DNA of 12,530 nucleotides from a virus: UHGV virus genome UHGV-1654121. The stretch is one strand, 5' to 3'. Numbering within the stretch: position 1 is the first letter of the stretch; each line of letters starts with the position of its first letter. Made by a program: the position numbers and the translations under genes. Below, piece after piece: positions 376 to 12,530 of this stretch. The notes under the pieces are model-generated. The model saw only the letters and a list, made by a program, of their open reading frames with translations, was not told the origin of the DNA and did not search any database.

Positions 376-408
376 CTGTACGAACAGATTAGATGCCTGT
401 TCGTACAG
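376..408 (+). promoter_or_regulatory. Perfect 12-bp inverted repeat (ctgtacgaacag N9 ctgttcgtacag) preceded by a 21-nt polypyrimidine tract; stem-loop or operator candidate
   Basis: Read directly: 376-387 ctgtacgaacag is the exact reverse complement of 397-408 ctgttcgtacag, with a 9-nt loop; 350-370 is C/T only (cacccccctcccatcctctct). No T-run follows, so it is not a canonical intrinsic terminator. Confidence 0.4.
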
Positions 409-461
409 TGATAAATTACGCACATCAGAAAACAAATTGTTTTAACAACAAGGAAATTCTA

Positions 462-2690
462 ATGTCCAAAAAAACCACCAAAGCTGTACTGAAAGAGGTG
501 CAGGATTTTCGCGACTGTGTAAAACGAGTTGTAGCGATGCTTTCAGGTAAACAGATACCTGTTGCAGAACGAGGCAATGAAGCATATGTCCGCTATAACC
601 GGCGCGGCGAACCAGTGCTGGTAAACATCCCATCTATACCGGACGACGCGTCGCCAACCCTCATGAACGTAGTGCGTGGTTTTCTCGACCATGAGGTGGC
701 CCATATTCTCTTTACTGAACCGAAAGTCGCAATGCAGATGCGCGAAAGAGGAAAGGCTCCGTCTACGGGGCTTTGGAATGCGCTGGAAGACGTTTTTATT
801 GAACGCAGAATGGGGCAGGTCTTTAACGGAACCCGGCGTAATTTACTTGCAACACAGAGTCTGGTTATCGACAAATACTTCAGGAATAAAGTACCAGAAG
901 CGGTTTTAGCCTGTCACGGAGACCAGCGTGAATTGTTTTTGAAATTCTTCCTTTGCCCGGTCGTCCGCGCCTGGGATGGACAAAGCCCCTTCATCGATTT
1001 TATGGAAGAACACTGGCGCCTTATCGAGAGGCCGGTAGCCTTACTAAAGGAGCATGGTATAGACGTGGCCGTTCGCAATATGTCGAACACTGAGGATTGC
1101 GTGAAGGTCGCTGCTGCTATAGCCCAAATCATGCAGGATATGAAAGACAAGCCAGAGGGCAAATTACCAGAACTTAAATCATCTGCCAGAAAGCCGTCGG
1201 AGAGCAAAGACGAGTCCGAGGAAACGCCAGAATCAGGTGACGAGCCGTCTCATGGTGACTCTGCATCTAAGCCTGCCAAAGGCGAAGGCGATGACAAGGA
1301 AGAACGAGAAGATGATGCATCAGAAGAGGAAGATTCTGGGGATTCCGATTTGCCTGATTCGTTAGATAAGGACTTACCTACACACGTTAAAGATATTAGT
1401 GATACAGAAAGTAAATATACAGAAGCAGGCCACGAAGAGTCAGGAGACACCCCAGAATCCGATGCTATCGGCATGAAATCAAGTGACTCTGACACCGATG
1501 GTGATGACGGTGAGGACTCCGATACTGATCGTGGGGAAACTGAAGAAGACGTCGAAGGCAAAAAAAATAAAGATGGTGCGGAAGTGCCCAAAGACAGTGA
1601 GTCTGGCTTTGTTCCTGCGCCGGATGAAATGACTCTGGAGGAGGCGCTAAAGGCGCTCGACGAGATGGAAGACGGAATCGGTGAAATGACCGAAGACGCA
1701 CTGTCGGCCACCATCAGCAAAGAGCTTATGAGCGTCTCACCTTCTGATTATCGGCCATACGATCGATCATACGACTTTATCGGGTTGATTGATGGAGCCG
1801 AAGAGCATGTGAAGCGCACCAGAAAGACGTTCGGTGCAATACCAATGCACTCACCAGTCGACCGCTACCGTATGGTGCCAGAAGGCAGAAAACTCTTTGA
1901 ACTGAAAATCGAAAAACATCTGTCTGCAGGCGTTTCTTCGACGCTGGCCAAAGACCTGGAGCGGGCCATCGCCAGCCGCAACCGAGTTCAGTTTATACCT
2001 GGTCAGAGGCGTGGGCGGATACATGGCGCGAGCCTGTATCGTCTGGCAATGAACGACGACCGAGTGTTCCGCAAGAAGGAAGACCATAGAGCGGTGAACG
2101 CGTGTGTCCAGCAGGTCATCGACTTGTCCGGCTCAATGGATGGCGTGAAGATTCAACTGGCCCTAGCCAGTGCCTATACCATTGCGGATGCTTTAGATCG
2201 TATCAATGTCCCCAACATCATCACCGGCTTTACCACGTTCGGTAGCCCAGATTATGAAACCAGGTCGAAGCGCGGGTTTACACGCTTCGAGGCGCTCATG
2301 CTGCCCATTATCAAAAACTGGAATGAGAAAGCAAACTCTCCAGAGATCCGTGCTCGCATGGGATGCGTATGTGAGACGTTCCCCCTGCTCAATAACGTCG
2401 ATGGTGAGAGTGTCGCGCAACTGGCTACCCTGTTTGCAGGGCGAATGGAGGACAAAAAGATCATGCTGGTTATGAGTGATGGGGAGCCATGTGCTACAGG
2501 TAGTGGATTCCATCAGCATTTACGAACCGTCACCAAAGAAATTGAGACCTTGAGCGACATCGAACTGATGGCTATCGGCATTCTGACCGACGAACCACGG
2601 CGTTACTACAAAAATTACGCACTGGTTAACAGTGTTGAAGAGTTAGGGCCGTCAGTCGTCACTGAGTTATCTCGTATCATTCTTGGGTAA
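462..2690 (+). CDS. CobT-like vWA-domain protein (partner of a MoxR/CobS-type AAA+ ATPase), with HExxH motif and long acidic low-complexity segment
   Basis: Start set at ATG 462 (in frame with track ORF 393..2690) because AAGGAA at 450-455 lies 6 nt upstream and the 393 ATG is buried in the 376-408 hairpin. HEVAH encoded at 690-704; D/E/S-rich low-complexity segment about 1150-1700; MIDAS-like DLSGSMDG encoded around 2121-2135 followed by vWA-like sequence (ITGFTTFG...MSDGEP). Confidence 0.75.
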   Translation: MSKKTTKAVLKEVQDFRDCVKRVVAMLSGKQIPVAERGNEAYVRYNRRGEPVLVNIPSIPDDASPTLMNVVRGFLDHEVAHILFTEPKVAMQMRERGKAPSTGLWNALEDVFIERRMGQVFNGTRRNLLATQSLVIDKYFRNKVPEAVLACHGDQRELFLKFFLCPVVRAWDGQSPFIDFMEEHWRLIERPVALLKEHGIDVAVRNMSNTEDCVKVAAAIAQIMQDMKDKPEGKLPELKSSARKPSESKDESEETPESGDEPSHGDSASKPAKGEGDDKEEREDDASEEEDSGDSDLPDSLDKDLPTHVKDISDTESKYTEAGHEESGDTPESDAIGMKSSDSDTDGDDGEDSDTDRGETEEDVEGKKNKDGAEVPKDSESGFVPAPDEMTLEEALKALDEMEDGIGEMTEDALSATISKELMSVSPSDYRPYDRSYDFIGLIDGAEEHVKRTRKTFGAIPMHSPVDRYRMVPEGRKLFELKIEKHLSAGVSSTLAKDLERAIASRNRVQFIPGQRRGRIHGASLYRLAMNDDRVFRKKEDHRAVNACVQQVIDLSGSMDGVKIQLALASAYTIADALDRINVPNIITGFTTFGSPDYETRSKRGFTRFEALMLPIIKNWNEKANSPEIRARMGCVCETFPLLNNVDGESVAQLATLFAGRMEDKKIMLVMSDGEPCATGSGFHQHLRTVTKEIETLSDIELMAIGILTDEPRRYYKNYALVNSVEELGPSVVTELSRIILG

Positions 2691-2785
2691 TAGCTTTACC
2701 CTTAAAAATAAGTAACTACTTACTATACAGCCTAATATATTTCTATAAGATATACCCCACAAACGACAAACAGTAAGGAAAAAAC
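2691..2785 (+). promoter_or_regulatory. AT-rich intergenic region between the vWA and AAA+ genes; possible internal promoter plus RBS
   Basis: 95-nt AT-rich spacer (ttactatacagcctaatatatttctataagatata) ending in AAGGA at 2775-2779, 6 nt before ATG 2786. No exact T4 late-promoter TATAAATA box found. Confidence 0.2.
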
Positions 2786-4021
2786 ATGACCGCTACTGCA
2801 CTACAGCAAGAAGAACATTTGCCGGAAGCCATCGTCTGCAAGTGGTGTGGCAAATCCTTTCATTACCTGAAATCCCATATCTCTATGGGCCGTTGCGAGA
2901 ATATTCCTGAGTCTGCGAAGGGTCTGGACGTGGACGAAGTGGTGAAGATGTACACCTCTGCGTTTCCAGATGAACCAACGATCTCTCGCACGGCACTGGC
3001 CAAACTCAATGAGAAGCGTGCCGAAAAAAATTCATGCGAAGGAAAGGTAGCGGAGATTAGCGCACATCCGGGCTACGCAGGAACGGTCGAATACAAGACC
3101 GAACTGGTGGCCGCGCACGAGCTGCTTGGCGTAACGATCAAAGAGCTGGGAACGCCACGCGGAAAGCCACTACAGGTGACAGTCAACGTCAACACGCCCT
3201 ATCCGGAGTTCGTACCGGAAGCGAAGAAAAACTATGTGTATGGCGACTTCGACCTGATCAAAGACATCTTTATGATGCTGGAAATCGGAATCCCGGGTTA
3301 TCTCTGGGGCCATGCAGGAACCGGTAAATCTTCTCTTCCTACGCAGCTATGTGCCCTGCTAAATCGACCACTGATCCGCGCCCAGCATACGGCATCTATG
3401 GAGGAAGCGCACGTTACAGGCCAGATCCTCGCTCGCGATGGTTCCACCTATTTCGAACCGGGTTTACTAGCGCTGGCGATGAAAAATGGTTGGGTTTACC
3501 TCGCTGATGAATATGACTTCGCGTTCCCGCAGATTCTGGGTGTGTATCAGCCAGTTCTTGAAGGAGAGCCGCTGATCATCAAAGAGGCAACTGCGGACTG
3601 GCGCCGCATCACCCCGCATAAACGCTTTGCCTTCATTGGCACTGGCAACACTAACGGCTCTGGCGACGAAACAGGTCTCTATCAAGGCACAAACATCCAG
3701 AACGCAGCGAACTTCTCGCGTTTTGGCATTGTTTCAAACGTGAAGTACATGAGTACGAAGGCAGAAGTCAACATGCTGGCTGAAGCAGGCGTCATCCGCG
3801 AATACGCCGAGAAGATGGTGAAGTTCGCGAATCTTATCCGTGAAGGTTATGAAAAGCATCAGATTAGCCAGCCAATCGGGCCTCGTGAGCTGCTGCTGTC
3901 CGCCAAAATCGGAATGATGCGCGGTGATTTCTCTGCCGGCATCGAAAAGTCGTTTATCAATAAACTTCCATCCACGTCTGCACAGGCAGCGCGTGAAGTG
4001 GTTCAGAAGATCTTTGGTTAA
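2786..4021 (+). CDS. CobS-like / MoxR-family AAA+ ATPase
   Basis: Walker A GHAGTGKS encoded at 3308-3331; downstream ...WVYLADEYDFAFPQ... consistent with a Walker B region; strong RBS; immediately downstream of the vWA partner, the usual pairing for MoxR/CobS-vWA systems. N-terminus carries a Cys/His cluster (CKWCGKSFHYLKSHISMGRC). Confidence 0.8.
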   Translation: MTATALQQEEHLPEAIVCKWCGKSFHYLKSHISMGRCENIPESAKGLDVDEVVKMYTSAFPDEPTISRTALAKLNEKRAEKNSCEGKVAEISAHPGYAGTVEYKTELVAAHELLGVTIKELGTPRGKPLQVTVNVNTPYPEFVPEAKKNYVYGDFDLIKDIFMMLEIGIPGYLWGHAGTGKSSLPTQLCALLNRPLIRAQHTASMEEAHVTGQILARDGSTYFEPGLLALAMKNGWVYLADEYDFAFPQILGVYQPVLEGEPLIIKEATADWRRITPHKRFAFIGTGNTNGSGDETGLYQGTNIQNAANFSRFGIVSNVKYMSTKAEVNMLAEAGVIREYAEKMVKFANLIREGYEKHQISQPIGPRELLLSAKIGMMRGDFSAGIEKSFINKLPSTSAQAAREVVQKIFG

Positions 4022-4023
4022 TC

Positions 4024-4227
4024 GTGCGTAAAGGATGTTTCGGCTCTCTTATCGCAGCGTCTGAAACTGGCAGTGCTTGTTTGGCATGTCCGGATAGCCC
4101 CGAGTGCCACCAGTCAGCCAAAGAGGTTGCGATTTCGATGTATGGGAAGTTCGTTGGCTTCCCCAATGACAAAATCAAGAAAACCAGAAAGGTAAAAGCA
4201 CATGAAGGCTCTGATGGTCAGAACTGA
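4024..4227 (+). CDS. Possible small Cys-rich protein (67 aa, GTG start); doubtful
   Basis: ORF begins with GTG 2 nt after the upstream stop and overlaps the polymerase start by 26 nt; contains CLACPDSPEC (CxxC...C). No convincing RBS for the GTG; internal ATG at 4138 has AAGAGG 11 nt upstream. Could equally be non-coding leader. Confidence 0.2.
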   Translation: MRKGCFGSLIAASETGSACLACPDSPECHQSAKEVAISMYGKFVGFPNDKIKKTRKVKAHEGSDGQN

Positions 4228-7200
4228 CTTCTCCCTGGGAGAGTCAGCTCTAAAAGCAGAAAACGCGATGAAAATCGCGAGAGACGCTGGCTACACCGCT
4301 GTCATTTCCGCTGACAGCATGAACATTGCCAGTGTGATCCCCCTGCAGCGTGCCGCTGGCGACGACATGGCGGTTATTTGTGGTGTTAAGCTGAATGTGG
4401 TCGACGATCCGACATACGAGCACCGCGCTCGCTTGGCGAAAGAGTCAGGAAGATGTATGGAATCATTAGTTCGTGATCGCAGCTACTGCTTCACGGCACT
4501 GATAAAGAATGAACAAGGTTATCGCGACGTGTGCGAACTGATGACCTTAGCGAACAAGCGCGAGCAATTCTACTTTGTCCCGCGTCTGGCGCTTGAGCAG
4601 CTGGCAGCCGCATATGCCAAAGGCAACATCATCCTGCTGACGTCCGACATTGGCAGTGTATTCCAGCGCCGGGACTTCGCAAAAATTATCGGGACGCTGG
4701 TCACAGCTGGCGGTCGCGATAACTTCTACAGCGTGGTTTATCCGCACCCTACCCCATTCTACGACCAGATTAACGTCCGGGCGATGAAAGTGGCGAGCGC
4801 ACTGAAAATAGAGCCAGTGGCGTTCTATCCCGCTTATTACGAAGCGATCGACGACGCTGACATTAAAGACATTGCGCACATGGTTACGAACAACATCAAA
4901 ATCGACCAGCCGCATCGTCTGCGCATCCCCCACCAGCGAGATAACGCTGTTAATGGTCGTCGCCATCTCCTTGAAGCGCTGAAAGCCTTCTCCGTTCGCA
5001 TGGGCGTACCGGTAACAGCTGCAATGGCCTCAACAACGCAGGACACCATTATTGAAGCCTGCACATGGCGCTGGCATGAACTGCCACCAGCACTGCCCAA
5101 GATGGCAGACGACGAGCCTGCAACGCTGATGAAGCTGGCTGTCGCGGGGCTACGCAAGCGTCTAACTACTAAAGAGTTTGGCTACACACCACCGGCTTCT
5201 GAGCACCGAGTGTATGTTGAGCGACTGAAGTACGAAATGGACACACTGACCCGTCTGGGCTTCTGTGGCTACTTCCTGATGGTACGCGATCTGATGAATC
5301 ACAGCCGTGAAACTGGCATTCCTGTCGGGCCAGGTCGTGGTTCCTCTGCCGGTTCTCTGGTGGCGTGGTGCATAGGCATAACCAACGTCGATCCTATCCG
5401 TCACGGTCTTCTGTTTGAGCGTTTCATCAACCCTGAACGTCTTGACTTACCGGATGCGGATCTGGACTTCAGCCAGGCACGTCGTCATGAGGTGATCGAG
5501 TATCTGAATGAACGCTATGGCGAAGATTACGTTGCCGGTATTCCAAACTTCACCTATCTGGGCGCCGCTTCTGCGCTGCGAGACACTGCGCGTATTTACG
5601 GTGTCGACGCTGCGGATATGGCGGTATCCAAAGAGTTCAAGAATCTGGAAGACGATAGCCTGTCTCTGGAAGAGCTGCGCGAGCAACTGGCCAGCCTGGA
5701 CAAATACGCCACGAAAAACCCGGAAGCGTTCAAAGCGGCGTGTAAGCTACAAAGCCTGATGCGTGGTTTTGGCCGTCATGCAGCGGGGATGATCGTCGCT
5801 GGCGTTCCACTGGTAGAGCGCACGCCCGTCGAGCTGCGTGGCAACGCTCGCTGTATTGCATTCGATAAACGTTACTGCGAGGCAATGGGGCTGATTAAGC
5901 TGGACGTTCTCGGTCTGGCAACGCTCGATCTGCTGGATAGCGCGAAACGCTACATCAAAGAGAGTACCGGGGAAGACATCAATCTCGATGCTATCCCACT
6001 GGACGATCGCAAAGTTCTGGATGGGTTCGCTGCAGGGTACACTCAGGGCGTATTCCAGCTGGAGTCCGGCCCCATGCGCAAGCTGCTTAAAGATCTGGGC
6101 GGTGGCATTGAGCCAATGAGCTTCAAAACCGTTGTCGCCACGACCGCACTCTTCCGACCTGGCCCGATTCAATCAGGCATGTTGGACGACTATGTCTCCG
6201 TGGCCAAAGGCTTCATGGCTCCACAGTCGCTGCACCCGGTACTGGACGAGCTTACCGCGGAAACCAACGGCGTGATTCTGTATCAGGAACAGACGATGAA
6301 CGCGACACGATTGCTGGCCGGCTTCACGATGGCCGAAGCAGATGGTGTGCGTAAAGCGATCGGTAAAAAGGATATGGAAAAGATGAAGAGCATGGGCGAG
6401 AAGTTCGTCGTTCAGGCTCAAGCTGGTTGGATCGACGTTGAGATGGAAGACGGCACAACGCAGCGTATTCACCGCGCGGAACACTTCAAATGTGAGGACG
6501 GCGCACTGCGGACGGTCGAAGAAGCGCTGGAGGCAGGTGTAAAATTGCCTATGGCTGCTGTACGCGTTACAGGGTCACAACCGGGCTTGTCTGAGACGAA
6601 AGCTAAGGAGATCTGGGATGCCTTCGAGAAGAACGGTGCGTATCAGTTCAACAAATCACACTCCGTTGCTTACTCGCTGATCAGCTATCAGTCTATGTGG
6701 TTAAAGACACATTACCCTGCTGAGTTCTTCGCTGCTGCGCTCACCATTCTGGGCGAGGATAAGCACCAGGGCTTAGTTAAAGATGCGCTGACCTATGGCA
6801 TTCGCGTATTGCCACCAGACGTTAACGTTTCATCTAACCGAATTGAGATCCGCACGCTGGAAGACGGCAGTCAGGTTCTGTATGCACCATTCTCTGCTGT
6901 GAAAGGCTGCTCTGAGAATGGTTGCCAGGCCATCATGAGAGCGCGTGAGAAAGTTGGCGGCAAATTCGAATCACTGGCGCAATTTGAGGAATCTGTCGAG
7001 AAGCGAGCATGTAACAGCCGGGTACGCGAGTCGCTGCAAAAAGTCGGTGCGTTCGCATCGATTGAGCCTGGCTGTCTGCCAGCGACAGATCCGGAACGGC
7101 TGCGCGACCAGGCAGAGTTGATGGGTAATCTGGTGATCGACGCTGTAAAAGCCTCTCGACCGTTCGAGATGAACCCTAAGCGCTCTGCTGAAGTAAATGT

Positions 7201-7720
7201 ACTGATGACGCGCATGGCGGCCGAAATGGGGCTGGGAGACAATCTAATCCGTCCAAGCATTGGTATTAAGCCAAAAATCATGGTTATTCTGGACAACGCG
7301 AACGGCAATGATGGGCGTACCGGCTACTTCATGGAGAACGGCTACGACGACTTTAAGGCGAAGTTGCTTACTGCCGGCGATCTGCGTATGGGCGATCTCT
7401 ACGTCACCGGCGTGTGCAAAAAGGTGAAGGACAAAGAGAAGGACTACACCAAAGACGAGATCGGTCAGTTCACCGACTTTATGCGTGAAGAGATCAATCT
7501 GGTGCGTCCGACCTATGTACTGACGTGTGGCAGCCGGGCGACGTCGCTCTTCAACAACAAGAGCAAACCATCCGACCTGGTTGGACGCAAAGAGTATCTG
7601 CCGGAGCTGGATGCGACCGTTTTCTACGGATTTAACCCGAATATCCTTTACTTCCGACCGGAAGAAGGAGAGCGACTGGAGGCCATTCTGACTGATATTG
7701 CGGAGACGATAAATAAGTAA
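4202..7720 (+). CDS. DnaE-type DNA polymerase (Pol III alpha-like catalytic subunit) with degenerate N-terminal PHP domain and atypical C-terminal domain
   Basis: Family-C polymerase signature blocks present: GPGRGSSAGSLVAWCIGIT..DP....LLFERFINPER, catalytic PDADLDF (Asp codons at 5453, 5459, 5465), AFDKRY, LYQEQTM, FNKSHSVAYSLISYQ..WLKTHYPAEF, then an HhH-like region. N-terminus (MVRTDFSLGES...AVISADS) lacks the His-x-His and TDH metal ligands of active PHP domains. The last roughly 150 aa (about 7259-7717) do not resemble the OB-fold/tau-binding tail. Confidence 0.9.
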   Translation: MKALMVRTDFSLGESALKAENAMKIARDAGYTAVISADSMNIASVIPLQRAAGDDMAVICGVKLNVVDDPTYEHRARLAKESGRCMESLVRDRSYCFTALIKNEQGYRDVCELMTLANKREQFYFVPRLALEQLAAAYAKGNIILLTSDIGSVFQRRDFAKIIGTLVTAGGRDNFYSVVYPHPTPFYDQINVRAMKVASALKIEPVAFYPAYYEAIDDADIKDIAHMVTNNIKIDQPHRLRIPHQRDNAVNGRRHLLEALKAFSVRMGVPVTAAMASTTQDTIIEACTWRWHELPPALPKMADDEPATLMKLAVAGLRKRLTTKEFGYTPPASEHRVYVERLKYEMDTLTRLGFCGYFLMVRDLMNHSRETGIPVGPGRGSSAGSLVAWCIGITNVDPIRHGLLFERFINPERLDLPDADLDFSQARRHEVIEYLNERYGEDYVAGIPNFTYLGAASALRDTARIYGVDAADMAVSKEFKNLEDDSLSLEELREQLASLDKYATKNPEAFKAACKLQSLMRGFGRHAAGMIVAGVPLVERTPVELRGNARCIAFDKRYCEAMGLIKLDVLGLATLDLLDSAKRYIKESTGEDINLDAIPLDDRKVLDGFAAGYTQGVFQLESGPMRKLLKDLGGGIEPMSFKTVVATTALFRPGPIQSGMLDDYVSVAKGFMAPQSLHPVLDELTAETNGVILYQEQTMNATRLLAGFTMAEADGVRKAIGKKDMEKMKSMGEKFVVQAQAGWIDVEMEDGTTQRIHRAEHFKCEDGALRTVEEALEAGVKLPMAAVRVTGSQPGLSETKAKEIWDAFEKNGAYQFNKSHSVAYSLISYQSMWLKTHYPAEFFAAALTILGEDKHQGLVKDALTYGIRVLPPDVNVSSNRIEIRTLEDGSQVLYAPFSAVKGCSENGCQAIMRAREKVGGKFESLAQFEESVEKRACNSRVRESLQKVGAFASIEPGCLPATDPERLRDQAELMGNLVIDAVKASRPFEMNPKRSAEVNVLMTRMAAEMGLGDNLIRPSIGIKPKIMVILDNANGNDGRTGYFMENGYDDFKAKLLTAGDLRMGDLYVTGVCKKVKDKEKDYTKDEIGQFTDFMREEINLVRPTYVLTCGSRATSLFNNKSKPSDLVGRKEYLPELDATVFYGFNPNILYFRPEEGERLEAILTDIAETINK

Positions 7721-11259: not shown

Positions 11260-12530
11260 ATGGCAAAAGGCAAATCCGCACTGGCACTGGCGCTGAAAAA
11301 GAAAATCGGCAGCAATGACGAGATTCAGAAGGTCTCCCACTGGATTGACTCCGGTTTCCCTCCACTGAACAAAGCCATTTCCGGACGTTACGACGGTGGT
11401 TTTCCGTGTGGGCGTATCGTTGAAGTCTTCGGGCCACCAAGCGCGGGGAAATGTGTTACCGCAGACACCATGCTGCTGACGGAGCGTGGAATGGTAACAG
11501 TGAAAGAACTGTTTGAGATTGAGGGGCACAAAGCAACATGCACTACTCGCGATGTAGAGCATAACGTTGGACTCATCAATGAAAATGGCGTGATAGAGAA
11601 GACCTCACACCTGACATGGAACAACCGTCGCAAATTCAAGCGCATTAAGCTGGCATCAGGGGGTTACATCGAGGCTACGTTCCGTCACCCAATTCGTGTG
11701 GTTGACGACTTAGGCAATATCGTCTGGCGGTATGCTGAAAAAATCAGTGTAGGCGACACGATTCCTTCAATGGTTGGCACACATCAATTCGGCGATCAGC
11801 ACTTGGATGCCAATATCGCAAAACTGATGGGCTATTTAATTGCTGACGGATACGTGGCCTCTGAAAATTCTGTGCATTTTTCTAACACAGCTCCATTCAT
11901 CAAGGATGAGTACTACCGCCTCATTTCGCTGGTATCAGACAAGATGCCAGTTACGAGAAAACATAACGGCTCGGAAGACCATGTGCTGTTTAGCAAAGAG
12001 GTGCGTTCGCTGCTTTTTAAAGAATATGGTCTGGAGTATGAGAAAGCTGCTTGCAAGCAGGTTCAGTTGAGTGTGCGTCGCGCCAATAGCGAGGCTCAAA
12101 TTGCATTCCTTCGCGGCTACTTTGAGCTGGAATGCCACGTCAATGATGGTCGCTGCATTGAGGTTGTGAGCGCGAGTGGGCTGCTGCTACAGCAAATTCG
12201 CCTCATGCTCCTGAATCTGGGGATTGCGTCAACTATCTCTGAAAAACACGTCGCAGGTTATAAAAACATATATTACCGGCTGTCATTCAGTGGCTCTAAC
12301 TACGACCTTTTCCTGTCAACGATTGGGTTCGAGTCTCCGGCTCGTTTAGCAGTGGCAACCAAACGGGACATTAGTTTTGACCGCACTTATTTAGGCTACG
12401 TTCCGCACATCAGCGGCTTAGTGAAATCACTCTACGAGTCACTCACCAAGACCTCTCGTAAAGACTACGTTCTGGTAGATCACGTTCTTGGCCGCGGCGA
12501 TCGTGTCGGAATAGACAAACTGCGAGAAAT
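11260..12530 (+). CDS. RecA-like recombinase, N-extein plus intein-interrupted P-loop (partial; continues beyond window)
   Basis: AAGGAG at 11247-11252, ATG 11260. N-extein ...GFPCGRIVEVFGPPSAGK closely parallels bacterial RecA GRIVEIYGPESSGKT; the reading frame stays open to the window end. After GK the sequence switches to intein blocks (see mobile_element). Confidence 0.85.
   Translation, partial: MAKGKSALALALKKKIGSNDEIQKVSHWIDSGFPPLNKAISGRYDGGFPCGRIVEVFGPPSAGKCVTADTMLLTERGMVTVKELFEIEGHKATCTTRDVEHNVGLINENGVIEKTSHLTWNNRRKFKRIKLASGGYIEATFRHPIRVVDDLGNIVWRYAEKISVGDTIPSMVGTHQFGDQHLDANIAKLMGYLIADGYVASENSVHFSNTAPFIKDEYYRLISLVSDKMPVTRKHNGSEDHVLFSKEVRSLLFKEYGLEYEKAACKQVQLSVRRANSEAQIAFLRGYFELECHVNDGRCIEVVSASGLLLQQIRLMLLNLGIASTISEKHVAGYKNIYYRLSFSGSNYDLFLSTIGFESPARLAVATKRDISFDRTYLGYVPHISGLVKSLYESLTKTSRKDYVLVDHVLGRGDRVGIDKLRE
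11452..12530 (+). mobile_element. Intein with LAGLIDADG homing-endonuclease domain inserted in the Walker A (P-loop) of the recombinase (partial; C-terminal splice junction outside window)
   Basis: Intein block A starts at Cys codon TGT 11452-11454 (CVTADTMLLTERGMVTVKEL); block B-like GGYIEATFRHPIRV (T..H); LAGLIDADG motif 1 KLMGYLIADGYV (about 11824-11856); motif 2 AFLRGYFELECHV (about 12103-12135). Insertion directly after GPPSAGK implies the missing Thr of GKT is the +1 C-extein nucleophile. Confidence 0.8.

Follow-up and report, generated by a model that had tools for sequence, protein, structure and literature searches.

The window analysed here, a 12,530 bp stretch of virus genome UHGV-1654121, encodes a C-family (DnaE-like) DNA polymerase whose PHP domain appears to have kept its fold but has lost all nine canonical metal ligands. 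We consider it probable (roughly three chances in four) that the metal-free PHP barrel is a structural module and that proofreading is performed in trans by an epsilon-like exonuclease encoded elsewhere on the same element. The arrangement is a more extreme viral version of that known from E. coli, and the polymerase and exonuclease pair fits the known rule by which a DnaQ proofreader makes up for a PHP domain that is inactive (PMC12926913).

The polymerase gene and its element

The 1172-residue polymerase is encoded by an SSU5-type phage-plasmid, and its features are listed in Table 1. The window is matched by 820 plasmid records and is 99.5% identical to the E. coli plasmid NZ_CP122497.1. 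The polymerase gene shares 95.7% nucleotide identity with its SSU5 counterpart, which is annotated as DNA polymerase III alpha. The polymerase is the sole replicative polymerase of an element of about 107 kb that also encodes a helicase, a primase, SSB, FEN and a ligase. The match to phrog_405 spans its full length, and its score of 627.8 bits on TIGR00594 (cut-off 434.35) places it in the C-family. Pfam recovers a PHP domain followed by DNA_pol3_alpha, DNA_pol3_finger and HHH_6, all above their gathering scores (PF07733, 246 bits; PF17657, 153; PF14579, 61; PF02811, 45), and all three palm catalytic aspartates are present in the alignment. On NF004226, the cellular DnaE1 equivalog model, the protein scores 675.6 bits and is below the cut-off of 1002. 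The insertion at residues 740–792 has no equivalent in the Taq, Mtb or E. coli enzymes, and we note that many relatives are encoded as two genes, split at the place of this insertion.

The polymerase departs from DnaE1 at its right end, where neither the OB and tau-binding domains that follow the HhH region nor the clamp motif is found. The columns aligned to E. coli 920-QADMF-924 read SAEVN, with no Q..F motif, and a second candidate for a beta-clamp motif, DQAELM (residues ~972–977), is paired in the full-length alignment with E. coli RAALM and not with QADMF. The C-terminal domain is instead predicted to adopt the fold of a family 4 UDG (pLDDT 94.8), with Foldseek TM values of 0.76–0.79 (E ~3e-11) to 1vk2, 1l9g, 4zbx and 1ui0. 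Sequence matches to this family fall below the model cut-offs (TIGR00758, E=6.8e-7, 29.2 bits against 125.3; Pfam UDG, E=0.002), and a search for the four 4Fe-4S cysteines and the motif B histidine of UDG family 4 found only Cys 1072 and Cys 1109, and no histidine. There is also a weak match of residues 1008–1160 to phrog_17 (PolA).

Table 1. Features of the polymerase gene, in coordinates of the window.
Feature	Coordinates	Strand	Basis or remark
DnaE-like C-family DNA polymerase gene	4202..7720	+	1172 aa plus stop; Pfam, TIGR00594, phrog_405, SSU5 match
PHP domain, aa 1–290; predicted fold kept, metal site lost	4202..5071	+	AlphaFold2, Foldseek
Ligands 1 and 2: M5 (ATG 4214–4216) and R7 (AGA 4220–4222) for HxH	4214..4222	+	alignment
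Ligand 3: E14 for Asp	4241..4243	+	alignment
Ligand 4: S39 for His of TDH; preceding D38 retained	4316..4318	+	alignment
Ligand 5: K63 for Glu	4388..4390	+	alignment
Ligand 6: C96 for His	4487..4489	+	alignment
Ligand 7: D149 for Cys	4646..4648	+	alignment
Ligands 8 and 9: P210 (4829–4831) and Y212 (4835–4837) for DxH	4829..4837	+	alignment
Catalytic Asp pair D418/D420 (PDADLDF)	5453..5461	+	E. coli D401/D403; intact
Third catalytic Asp D568 (KLDVLGL context)	5903..5905	+	E. coli D555; intact
Insertion of ~53 aa, aa 740–792	6419..6577	+	absent from the Taq, Mtb and E. coli enzymes
Predicted UDG family 4 fold, aa 981–1172, replacing OB and tau-binding domains	7142..7717	+	AlphaFold2, Foldseek

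The PHP domain and its metal site

The N-terminal domain is predicted to be a complete and well-folded (beta-alpha)7 barrel without metal-binding residues. The AlphaFold2 model (pLDDT 93.1, pTM 0.91) matches the PHP domains of Pol III alpha subunits in Foldseek searches (E=3e-15), with TMq values of 0.76 to Taq 4iqj and 2hpi, 0.74–0.78 to E. coli 2hnh and 5fkw, and 0.77 to Mtb 7pu7; further PHP phosphoesterases, among them RNase AM, match more weakly. Pfam PHP (PF02811) is matched at residues 6–156 with 45.3 bits (cut-off 26.4), and barrel fold and sequence match together place the domain in the PHP superfamily. Sequence identity to the E. coli PHP domain is about 18%, and phmmer comparison of the PHP region alone with the PDB gives marginal E-values of 0.06–0.4, the assignment otherwise resting on the family alignment and the structure prediction. 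A first-pass annotation of this DNA had placed the PHP domain at 4202–5000; the domain is indeed found there, but its fold continues to residue ~290 (~5071).

The polymerase N-terminus reads MKALMVRTDFSLGES...GYTAVISADSMN, and the same annotation had proposed that these residues replace the HxHxxxS and TDH metal ligands. N-terminal sequences of the window protein, E. coli DnaE, nickie, RHEph10 and Hydra, together with 145 representative homologues drawn from an exhaustive HMMER search, were aligned by MAFFT L-INS-i; a narrower homologue search with residues 1–300 had returned 13 close or partial relatives only. The ligand columns were anchored on E. coli R10, H12, D19, F44, D69, H83, G134, D201 and R203, following the mapping of Table 1 in PMC3666897. 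In this alignment 62 homologues have the canonical HHDHEHCDH at the nine columns. The window protein has M5, R7, E14, S39, K63, C96, D149, P210 and Y212 (MRESKCDPY) and retains none of the nine, which confirms the proposed replacement, whereas the E. coli PHP domain, already inactive, retains four. The flanking sequences pair unambiguously (window protein first: TDFSLGES with SEYSLLDG, AVISADSMN with ALAMTDHGN, ICGVKLNV with IVGIEAYV, CFTALIKNEQGY with HMTMLATNKTGL, and VAFYPAYY with VVTNDSHY). Nor are the ligands conserved at shifted positions, as residues 1–290 contain six histidines (74, 182, 226, 238, 244 and 255), none of them in a ligand column.

Active PHP exonucleases carry the motif HHDHEH[C/H]DH, which coordinates three metals (PMC12926913, PMC3666897, PMC5636811), and any deviation from it identifies a PHP domain as inactive (PMC12926913). 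Because all nine ligands are substituted, the domain would have no trinuclear Zn/Mn centre and, as part of the explanation that we favour, would be unable to act as a PHP 3′–5′ exonuclease; the earlier view that it is probably catalytically dead is thus supported. A weak non-canonical metal site formed by E14, C96 and D149 could in principle exist.

Several patterns emerge from the viral clade to which the polymerase belongs. First, 64 of its 71 representatives have none of the canonical ligands, and 67 have no histidine at any of the nine positions. Secondly, the consensus at these positions is x-R-E-T-R-x-D-P-L, with Arg or Lys at positions 2 and 5, Glu or Asp at 3 and 7, and Pro at 8. In the majority of members two basic residues stand beside two acidic ones at the ligand positions, and the net charge is 0 in 47 of the 71. 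Thirdly, a basic residue at position 2 co-occurs with an acidic residue at position 3 (Fisher p=7e-6), and position 6 is often basic where position 5 is non-basic (Fisher p=0.005), both tests ignoring phylogenetic relatedness. In the SSU5 subgroup position 4 is S rather than T and position 5 is K rather than R, and a K-P dipeptide ahead of strand beta3 has been lost. Judged from the alignment, the substitutions are a conserved, charge-balanced set and not the product of random decay.

This pattern suggests that salt bridges between side chains fill the former metal cavity, the opposite charges pairing in the emptied site by the logic demonstrated for E. coli R10 and R203; R7 and K63 are the basic residues at former ligand sites here. 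Arg often takes the place of PHP metals, and variant domains tend to occur where epsilon is present (PMC3666897). Conservation of a specific residue set could also point to a different catalytic activity, such as the pyrophosphatase reported for the E. coli alpha PHP domain with H12, D19, D43, D69, H83 and D201 (PMC4822814). We regard this as very unlikely, because only D43 of these six is kept (as D38), the others being R7, E14, K63, C96 and P210, and because the conserved set is charge-neutral and devoid of histidine, which fits packing better than catalysis.

A separately encoded DnaQ-like exonuclease

Within the window Pfam recognises no 3′–5′ exonuclease, the sole nuclease being a 5′–3′ FEN, and an HMM of epsilon-like exonucleases has a best E-value of 2.9 against the window ORFs, in agreement with the first-pass annotation, which had seen no proofreading subunit here and had argued that a separate one would be needed. 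A candidate is found in the flanking genome: a single DnaQ-like ORF (E=1e-81) occurs in the whole 107,494-bp element, at 77,467–78,021 of NZ_CP122497.1, about 19 kb downstream of the polymerase and outside the window. Its product, WP_025670512.1, is a 184-residue DEDDh protein of the RNase_T/DnaQ family (Pfam RNase_T, 76.6 bits against 24), and E. coli epsilon (1j53) is closest to it among solved structures. The full DEDDh set is present, with D9, E11, D99, H154 and D159 corresponding to E. coli D12, E14, D103, H162 and D167, and these residues are invariant among six sequences (five phage exonucleases and E. coli epsilon). Among the family models only Pfam RNase_T is passed; the protein scores 73 bits on the epsilon models TIGR01406 and NF004316 (cut-offs 196 and 222.7) and 51.7 bits on TIGR00573 (cut-off 71.5). 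The alpha-binding tail of epsilon (E. coli residues ~190–243) is absent, with the five phage exonucleases stopping at about E. coli residue 190 and the catalytic domain followed by no more than a short motif, G-[FLY]-[FYV]-x-x-P, which reads G-F-F-K-L-P in the 184-residue protein, and for this reason the tether of the exonuclease must differ from that of E. coli. Another candidate proofreader, the annotated RNase H-like domain protein SSU5_077, was rejected, as it has no Pfam match and is not DnaQ-like; by eye its N-terminus (VVGVDPS...) looks RuvC-like.

The exonuclease and the polymerase clade are found in an identical set of 31 phage records (12 SSU5-like, 10 Rhizobium, 6 Pseudomonas nickie-like, 2 Stenotrophomonas and 1 Xanthomonas), the exonuclease gene lying 19–28 kb from dnaE and in no shared operon. 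It is from this co-occurrence that we infer that the two proteins work together, although it could reflect mere membership in one conserved phage genome backbone.

The same distribution bears on two alternatives. The first is that the host epsilon (DnaQ) is borrowed through the PHP domain, as by E. coli alpha, with the phage exonuclease serving in repair, recombination or the like. The hosts belong to the Enterobacteriaceae, in which epsilon binds a PHP domain that is inactive (PMC3666897, PMC3919608), and the predicted PHP fold is near that of E. coli (TM 0.74–0.78), but we think this improbable, since the element's own exonuclease accompanies the polymerase in every one of the 31 records, across hosts as different as Rhizobium, Pseudomonas and Stenotrophomonas, and PHP identity to E. 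coli is low. The E. coli epsilon contact K63-P64 is A57-V58 in the window protein; K-P is present in most of the clade, where it is also structural in strand beta3.

The second alternative is a low-fidelity polymerase that dispenses with proofreading, like DnaE2 and DnaE3, whose PHP sites are degenerate too, with little or no conservation at the nine positions; neither enzyme is believed to bind epsilon (PMC3919608, PMC12926913). That the exonuclease is not adjacent to dnaE is compatible with this. However, the polymerase is far under the cut-off of the DnaE2 model NF004225 (397.2 bits against 939) and does not fall in that group, it is the only replicative polymerase of its element, and an intact DEDDh exonuclease accompanies it without exception; we think it improbable that proofreading is dispensed with. 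Proofreading in trans by the phage-encoded exonuclease is the reading that we prefer to both.

Relationships to known systems

The closest parallel is with E. coli Pol III alpha (DnaE1), which likewise has a PHP fold without a metal centre, basic residues (R10 and R203) at former ligand sites (PMC3666897), a separately encoded DEDDh exonuclease, and the same conserved catalytic triad and palm, thumb, fingers and HhH core. The differences are that nine of nine ligands are changed here and five of nine in E. coli, that a predicted UDG fold takes the place of the OB/tau-binding C-terminus, and that the exonuclease consists of the catalytic domain only. By sequence over the full length, the solved structures that match best are those of M. 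tuberculosis DnaE1 and T. aquaticus Pol III alpha, which share the domain order and the PHP fold (TM 0.76–0.77), but both have the full HHDHEHCDH trinuclear Zn site (PMC5636811) that the window protein lacks.

Among phage-encoded enzymes, the DnaE of Streptomyces phages (Likavirus, e.g. Hydra) shares about 30% identity over residues 4–992, and because the match stops at residue 992 it lacks the UDG-fold C-terminus. Hydra serves as a control, in that the HHDHEHCDH of its DnaE is intact and no DnaQ-like ORF was found in its 50 kb; of its two annotated exonuclease genes, one has no Pfam match and the other a weak match to Metallophos_2, and neither is DnaQ-like. Pseudomonas phage nickie and Rhizobium phage RHEph10, siphophages of ~110 kb, have the full-length architecture (35–36% identity over residues 4–1171), degenerate PHP sites (GKEVQMSPL and ARETRFDPY, respectively) and the same epsilon-like exonuclease, and RHEph10 shares the gene order DnaE-SSB-FEN-RecA; they differ in being lytic or otherwise non-plasmid and in infecting other hosts. 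[quoted passage not shown] The union of a UDG-superfamily fold with a replicative phage polymerase is thus shared, with the difference that here the fold is C-terminal and on a C-family polymerase.

Discussion

We propose that the PHP barrel would persist in this polymerase as a structural module after losing its trinuclear Zn/Mn centre, with the 184-residue DEDDh exonuclease supplying proofreading in trans, as its strict co-occurrence with the polymerase suggests. The principle of an inactive PHP domain paired with DnaQ is already established in bacteria (PMC3666897, PMC3919608, PMC12926913), and the present case would be an independent second example of such a pairing with a DnaQ-type exonuclease, with a tether necessarily unlike that of E. 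coli.

More speculatively, the polymerase, the tail-less exonuclease and the UDG fold might together make up a minimal Pol III core of a distinct, viral kind, in which the PHP domain docks the exonuclease through an interface different from that of E. coli and the UDG fold replaces the clamp, OB and tau modules; we lean against this larger scheme while taking it seriously. If it were true, the UDG-fold C-terminus would either confer processivity as an intrinsic factor or sense uracil or DNA damage, and these polymerases would be a separate, undescribed group of C-family replicases, widespread in phages of ~100–120 kb and in phage-plasmids.

Klebsiella, Escherichia, Salmonella and Yersinia commonly harbour SSU5-type phage-plasmids, and these carry resistance genes. 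A PHP barrel without any metal ligand, yet conserved to ~35% identity, is a natural experiment, and it supports an essential structural or docking role that is independent of catalysis. That the SSU5-type phage-plasmids replicate with a Pol III-like enzyme of their own, and would leave proofreading to a separate exonuclease, helps to frame their mutation rate and host independence.

Source element and gene content

The 12.5-kb window matches Escherichia coli plasmid NZ_CP122497.1 (107,494 bp, IncFIB, non-mobilizable) over its full length at 99.5% identity, and matching plasmid records number 820, from Klebsiella, Escherichia, Enterobacter, Yersinia and Salmonella. The dnaE gene shares 95.7% nucleotide identity with Salmonella phage SSU5, and on the strength of these matches we assign the window to an SSU5-type phage-plasmid and, within it, to the replication module.

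Genes in the window, in order
Gene	Product	Coordinates	Strand
1	CobT-like VWA protein	within 393-4021	
2	MoxR/CobS-like AAA ATPase	within 393-4021	
3	67-aa ORF	4024-4227	
4	DnaE-like polymerase	4202-7720	+
5	AlpA-like regulator		-
6	Function-unassigned protein, between AlpA-like regulator and SSB		
7	gp32-like SSB		
8	5'-3' FEN exonuclease		
9	RecA with intein	11260-12530, extends past window end	

The CobT-like protein, whose 765 aa include a long, acidic linker of low complexity, and the CobS/MoxR-like ATPase (AAA_5) adjoin dnaE upstream and are labelled 'porphyrin biosynthesis' in the annotation. The 67-aa ORF, which shares 26 nt with the start of dnaE, contains four cysteines (C-x18-C-x18-C-x8-C) and matches phrog_6337, a family of unknown function, along its full length (E=7e-48). 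The RecA intein carries a LAGLIDADG homing endonuclease and is inserted directly past the P-loop, between GPPSAGK and CVTADTML...; the RefSeq coding sequence is 2340 bp, compared to 1077 bp for recA in SSU5. Rhizobium phage RHEph10 (locus L006, 1227-9596) has the same order of DnaE, two small ORFs, gp32-like SSB, FEN, small ORFs and RecA, despite only about 35% polymerase identity. The replication module is conserved among phages of about 105–120 kb.

The PHP metal site

The polymerase begins MKALMVRTDFSLGES and continues ...GYTAVISADSMN, as quoted in the first-pass annotation, which took the PHP domain to be degenerate and probably catalytically dead. Pfam places PHP at residues 6–156 (45.3 bits; cut-off 26.4), followed by DNA_pol3_alpha (309–571), the finger domain (574–740) and HHH_6 (866–955). 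The PHP region alone matches PDB chains only at E=0.06–0.4 (phmmer), and because of this strong divergence a deeper alignment was built. Searched exhaustively with HMMER, 1.84 billion cluster representatives gave 32,623 homologues, and the N-termini of 145 (at least 700 aa) among the best 150 were aligned with E. coli DnaE and those of phages nickie, RHEph10 and Hydra, with the ligand columns set by E. coli R10/H12/D19/F44/D69/H83/G134/D201/R203 (Table 1 of Barros et al., PMC3666897).

At these nine columns 62 of the 145 homologues have HHDHEHCDH, the definition of an active PHP in a 2026 survey (PMC12926913). The window polymerase has M5, R7, E14, S39, K63, C96, D149, P210 and Y212, none of them canonical, and its loss of all nine ligands is more extreme than that of the E. 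coli PHP. The flanking sequence aligns cleanly, which excludes a register error, and none of the six histidines in the domain lies in a ligand column, where the canonical site requires five; the ligands are therefore not conserved at shifted positions, the finding that was to have overturned the first-pass reading. With every ligand substituted, the domain is probably catalytically dead, as proposed. Residual pyrophosphatase activity, reported for the E. coli PHP using H12, D19, D43, D69, H83 and D201 (PMC4822814), is unlikely, since only D38 (the D43 equivalent) survives of those six residues.

The fold itself is retained in an AlphaFold2 model of residues 1–300 (alignment of 61 sequences; mean pLDDT 93.1, pTM 0.91). 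Foldseek matches the model to the PHP domain of Taq Pol III alpha (TMq 0.76, rmsd 2.9 Å), E. coli alpha (TM 0.74–0.78) and Mtb DnaE1 (0.77), with other PHP phosphoesterases lower in the list. PHP ligands sit in or just after barrel strands, and most of the substituted positions are in or just beyond predicted strands, E14 being in the loop that follows strand 1. With D418, D420 and D568 in conserved contexts, the polymerase as such seems functional.

Ligand loss extends across a group of 71 representatives, with identities down to about 35% and including nickie and RHEph10; at the nine positions 64 have no canonical residue and 67 have no histidine. The group shows the consensus x-R-E-T-R-x-D-P-[LMFY], with two basic and two acidic residues in most members and zero net charge in 47 of the 71. 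Basic residues at some positions go with acidic ones at others, for instance position 2 [RK] with position 3 [DE] (Fisher p=7e-6), and position 6 is often basic where position 5 is not (p=0.005), although these tests ignore shared ancestry and the covariation is only suggestive. From these sequences the loss appears old and patterned rather than random. The pattern fits the account by Barros et al. of variant PHP domains, in which arginine is the commonest replacement and a positive side chain substitutes for a metal ion, with E. coli R203 and R10 occupying metal sites 1 and 2 (PMC3666897). In the window protein, R7 and K63 together with E14 and D149 would fill the former metal cavity.

A separate exonuclease in the same element

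The first-pass annotation reasoned that proofreading would need a separate subunit and recognised none in the window. We likewise find no 3'-5' exonuclease there: FEN is the sole nuclease detected by Pfam, and an HMM of epsilon-like exonucleases gives a best match of E=2.9 to the window ORFs. Against the complete, near-identical plasmid NZ_CP122497.1, the same HMM identifies exactly one ORF (E=1e-81), at 77,458-78,018, some 19 kb downstream of dnaE; the exonuclease itself is placed at 77,467-78,021 (45465-46019 of locus L002). This DnaQ-like candidate, labelled 3'-5' exonuclease in RefSeq, is 184 aa long, passes Pfam RNase_T (76.6 bits), and hits phrog_192 (E=1.7e-47), which is described as 'DNA polymerase exonuclease subunit'; among solved structures E. 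coli epsilon is closest (1j53, E=2.8e-11), and the DEDDh residues of the two align.

By tblastn 38 phage records contain the exonuclease, and the best 31 are the same 31 that carry the polymerase clade: 12 SSU5-like, 10 Rhizobium, six Pseudomonas nickie-like and two Stenotrophomonas phages, and Xanthomonas JGB6. The polymerase is full-length in these, except in the three Stenotrophomonas and Xanthomonas phages, where it is partial or fragmented. In contrast, the DnaE of Streptomyces phage Hydra keeps HHDHEHCDH; 50 kb of its genome shows no detectable DnaQ-like ORF (best E=1), and no Streptomyces phages are among the 38 records. This distribution matches the bacterial rule that a replicative alpha has at least one active proofreader, PHP or DnaQ (PMC12926913; PMC3666897). 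The missing subunit is encoded elsewhere in the element, and we infer its partnership with the polymerase from their co-occurrence. A polymerase working without proofreading, in a DnaE2-like role, is unlikely given that this is the element's only replicative polymerase and that an intact DEDDh enzyme travels with it.

Departures from E. coli alpha and epsilon

Of the family models, only the superfamily-level TIGR00594 accepts the polymerase, which fails the DnaE1 and DnaE2 equivalog and subfamily models, and the phage exonucleases fall far under the NCBIfam epsilon cut-offs. The five compared (SSU5-type, RHEph10, RHph_X66, nickie and ANB28; 185–190 aa) terminate at the point corresponding to the end of the catalytic domain in E. 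coli epsilon, and lack the Q-linker and C-terminal alpha-binding helix; their common end is a short G-[FLY]-[FYV]-x-x-P motif directly past the catalytic domain, a possible tethering peptide. The E. coli alpha contact K63-P64 corresponds to A57-V58 in the window protein, and the exonuclease tether necessarily differs from that of E. coli. Recruitment of a host epsilon by the phage polymerase is unlikely in view of these altered contact residues and the conservation of the element's own exonuclease across unrelated hosts. The window polymerase also lacks a QADMF-type clamp motif in the columns where E. coli alpha has it.

Insertions in the polymerase gene include one of about 53 aa (residues 740–792, window 6419-6577), which separates the finger domain from the QFNKSHS helix and is missing in Taq, Mtb and E. 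coli. Among the representatives, some 20 relatives are proteins of about 780 aa ending directly past it, and others of about 390 aa start at residue 787 (e.g. P0015 and P0063; 62–63% identity); the family therefore often occurs as two genes divided here. In the Klebsiella phage-plasmids CP101896.1, CP101890.1 and PQ492289.1 the dnaE match is broken in two and extends over 4,250 bp rather than 3,516 bp, indicating an insertion of about 730 bp, perhaps an intron, intein or homing element; that of Xanthomonas phage JGB6 is in four pieces.

Where cellular DnaE has its OB and tau-binding domains, residues 981–1172 (window 7142-7717) are predicted to adopt a family 4 UDG fold (AlphaFold2 pLDDT 94.8; Foldseek TM 0.76–0.79 to 1vk2, 4zbx and 1ui0, the T. 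maritima, S. tokodaii and T. thermophilus UDGs). The domain is conserved across the clade, and a UDG-like annotation is already present in the RefSeq note on the RHEph10 polymerase. It has only two cysteines and no histidine, and therefore neither an Fe-S cluster nor the motif B histidine; it is probably not a glycosylase. UDG-like domains have been proposed as intrinsic processivity factors of phage A-family polymerases, and viral C-family polymerases differ from that of E. coli at the C-terminus (Kazlauskas and Venclovas, PMC3201878).

The polymerase is a viral member of a known pattern, in which an inactive PHP domain is accompanied by a DnaQ-type proofreader; the points of more interest are how the tail-less exonuclease docks and the UDG-fold C-terminus.
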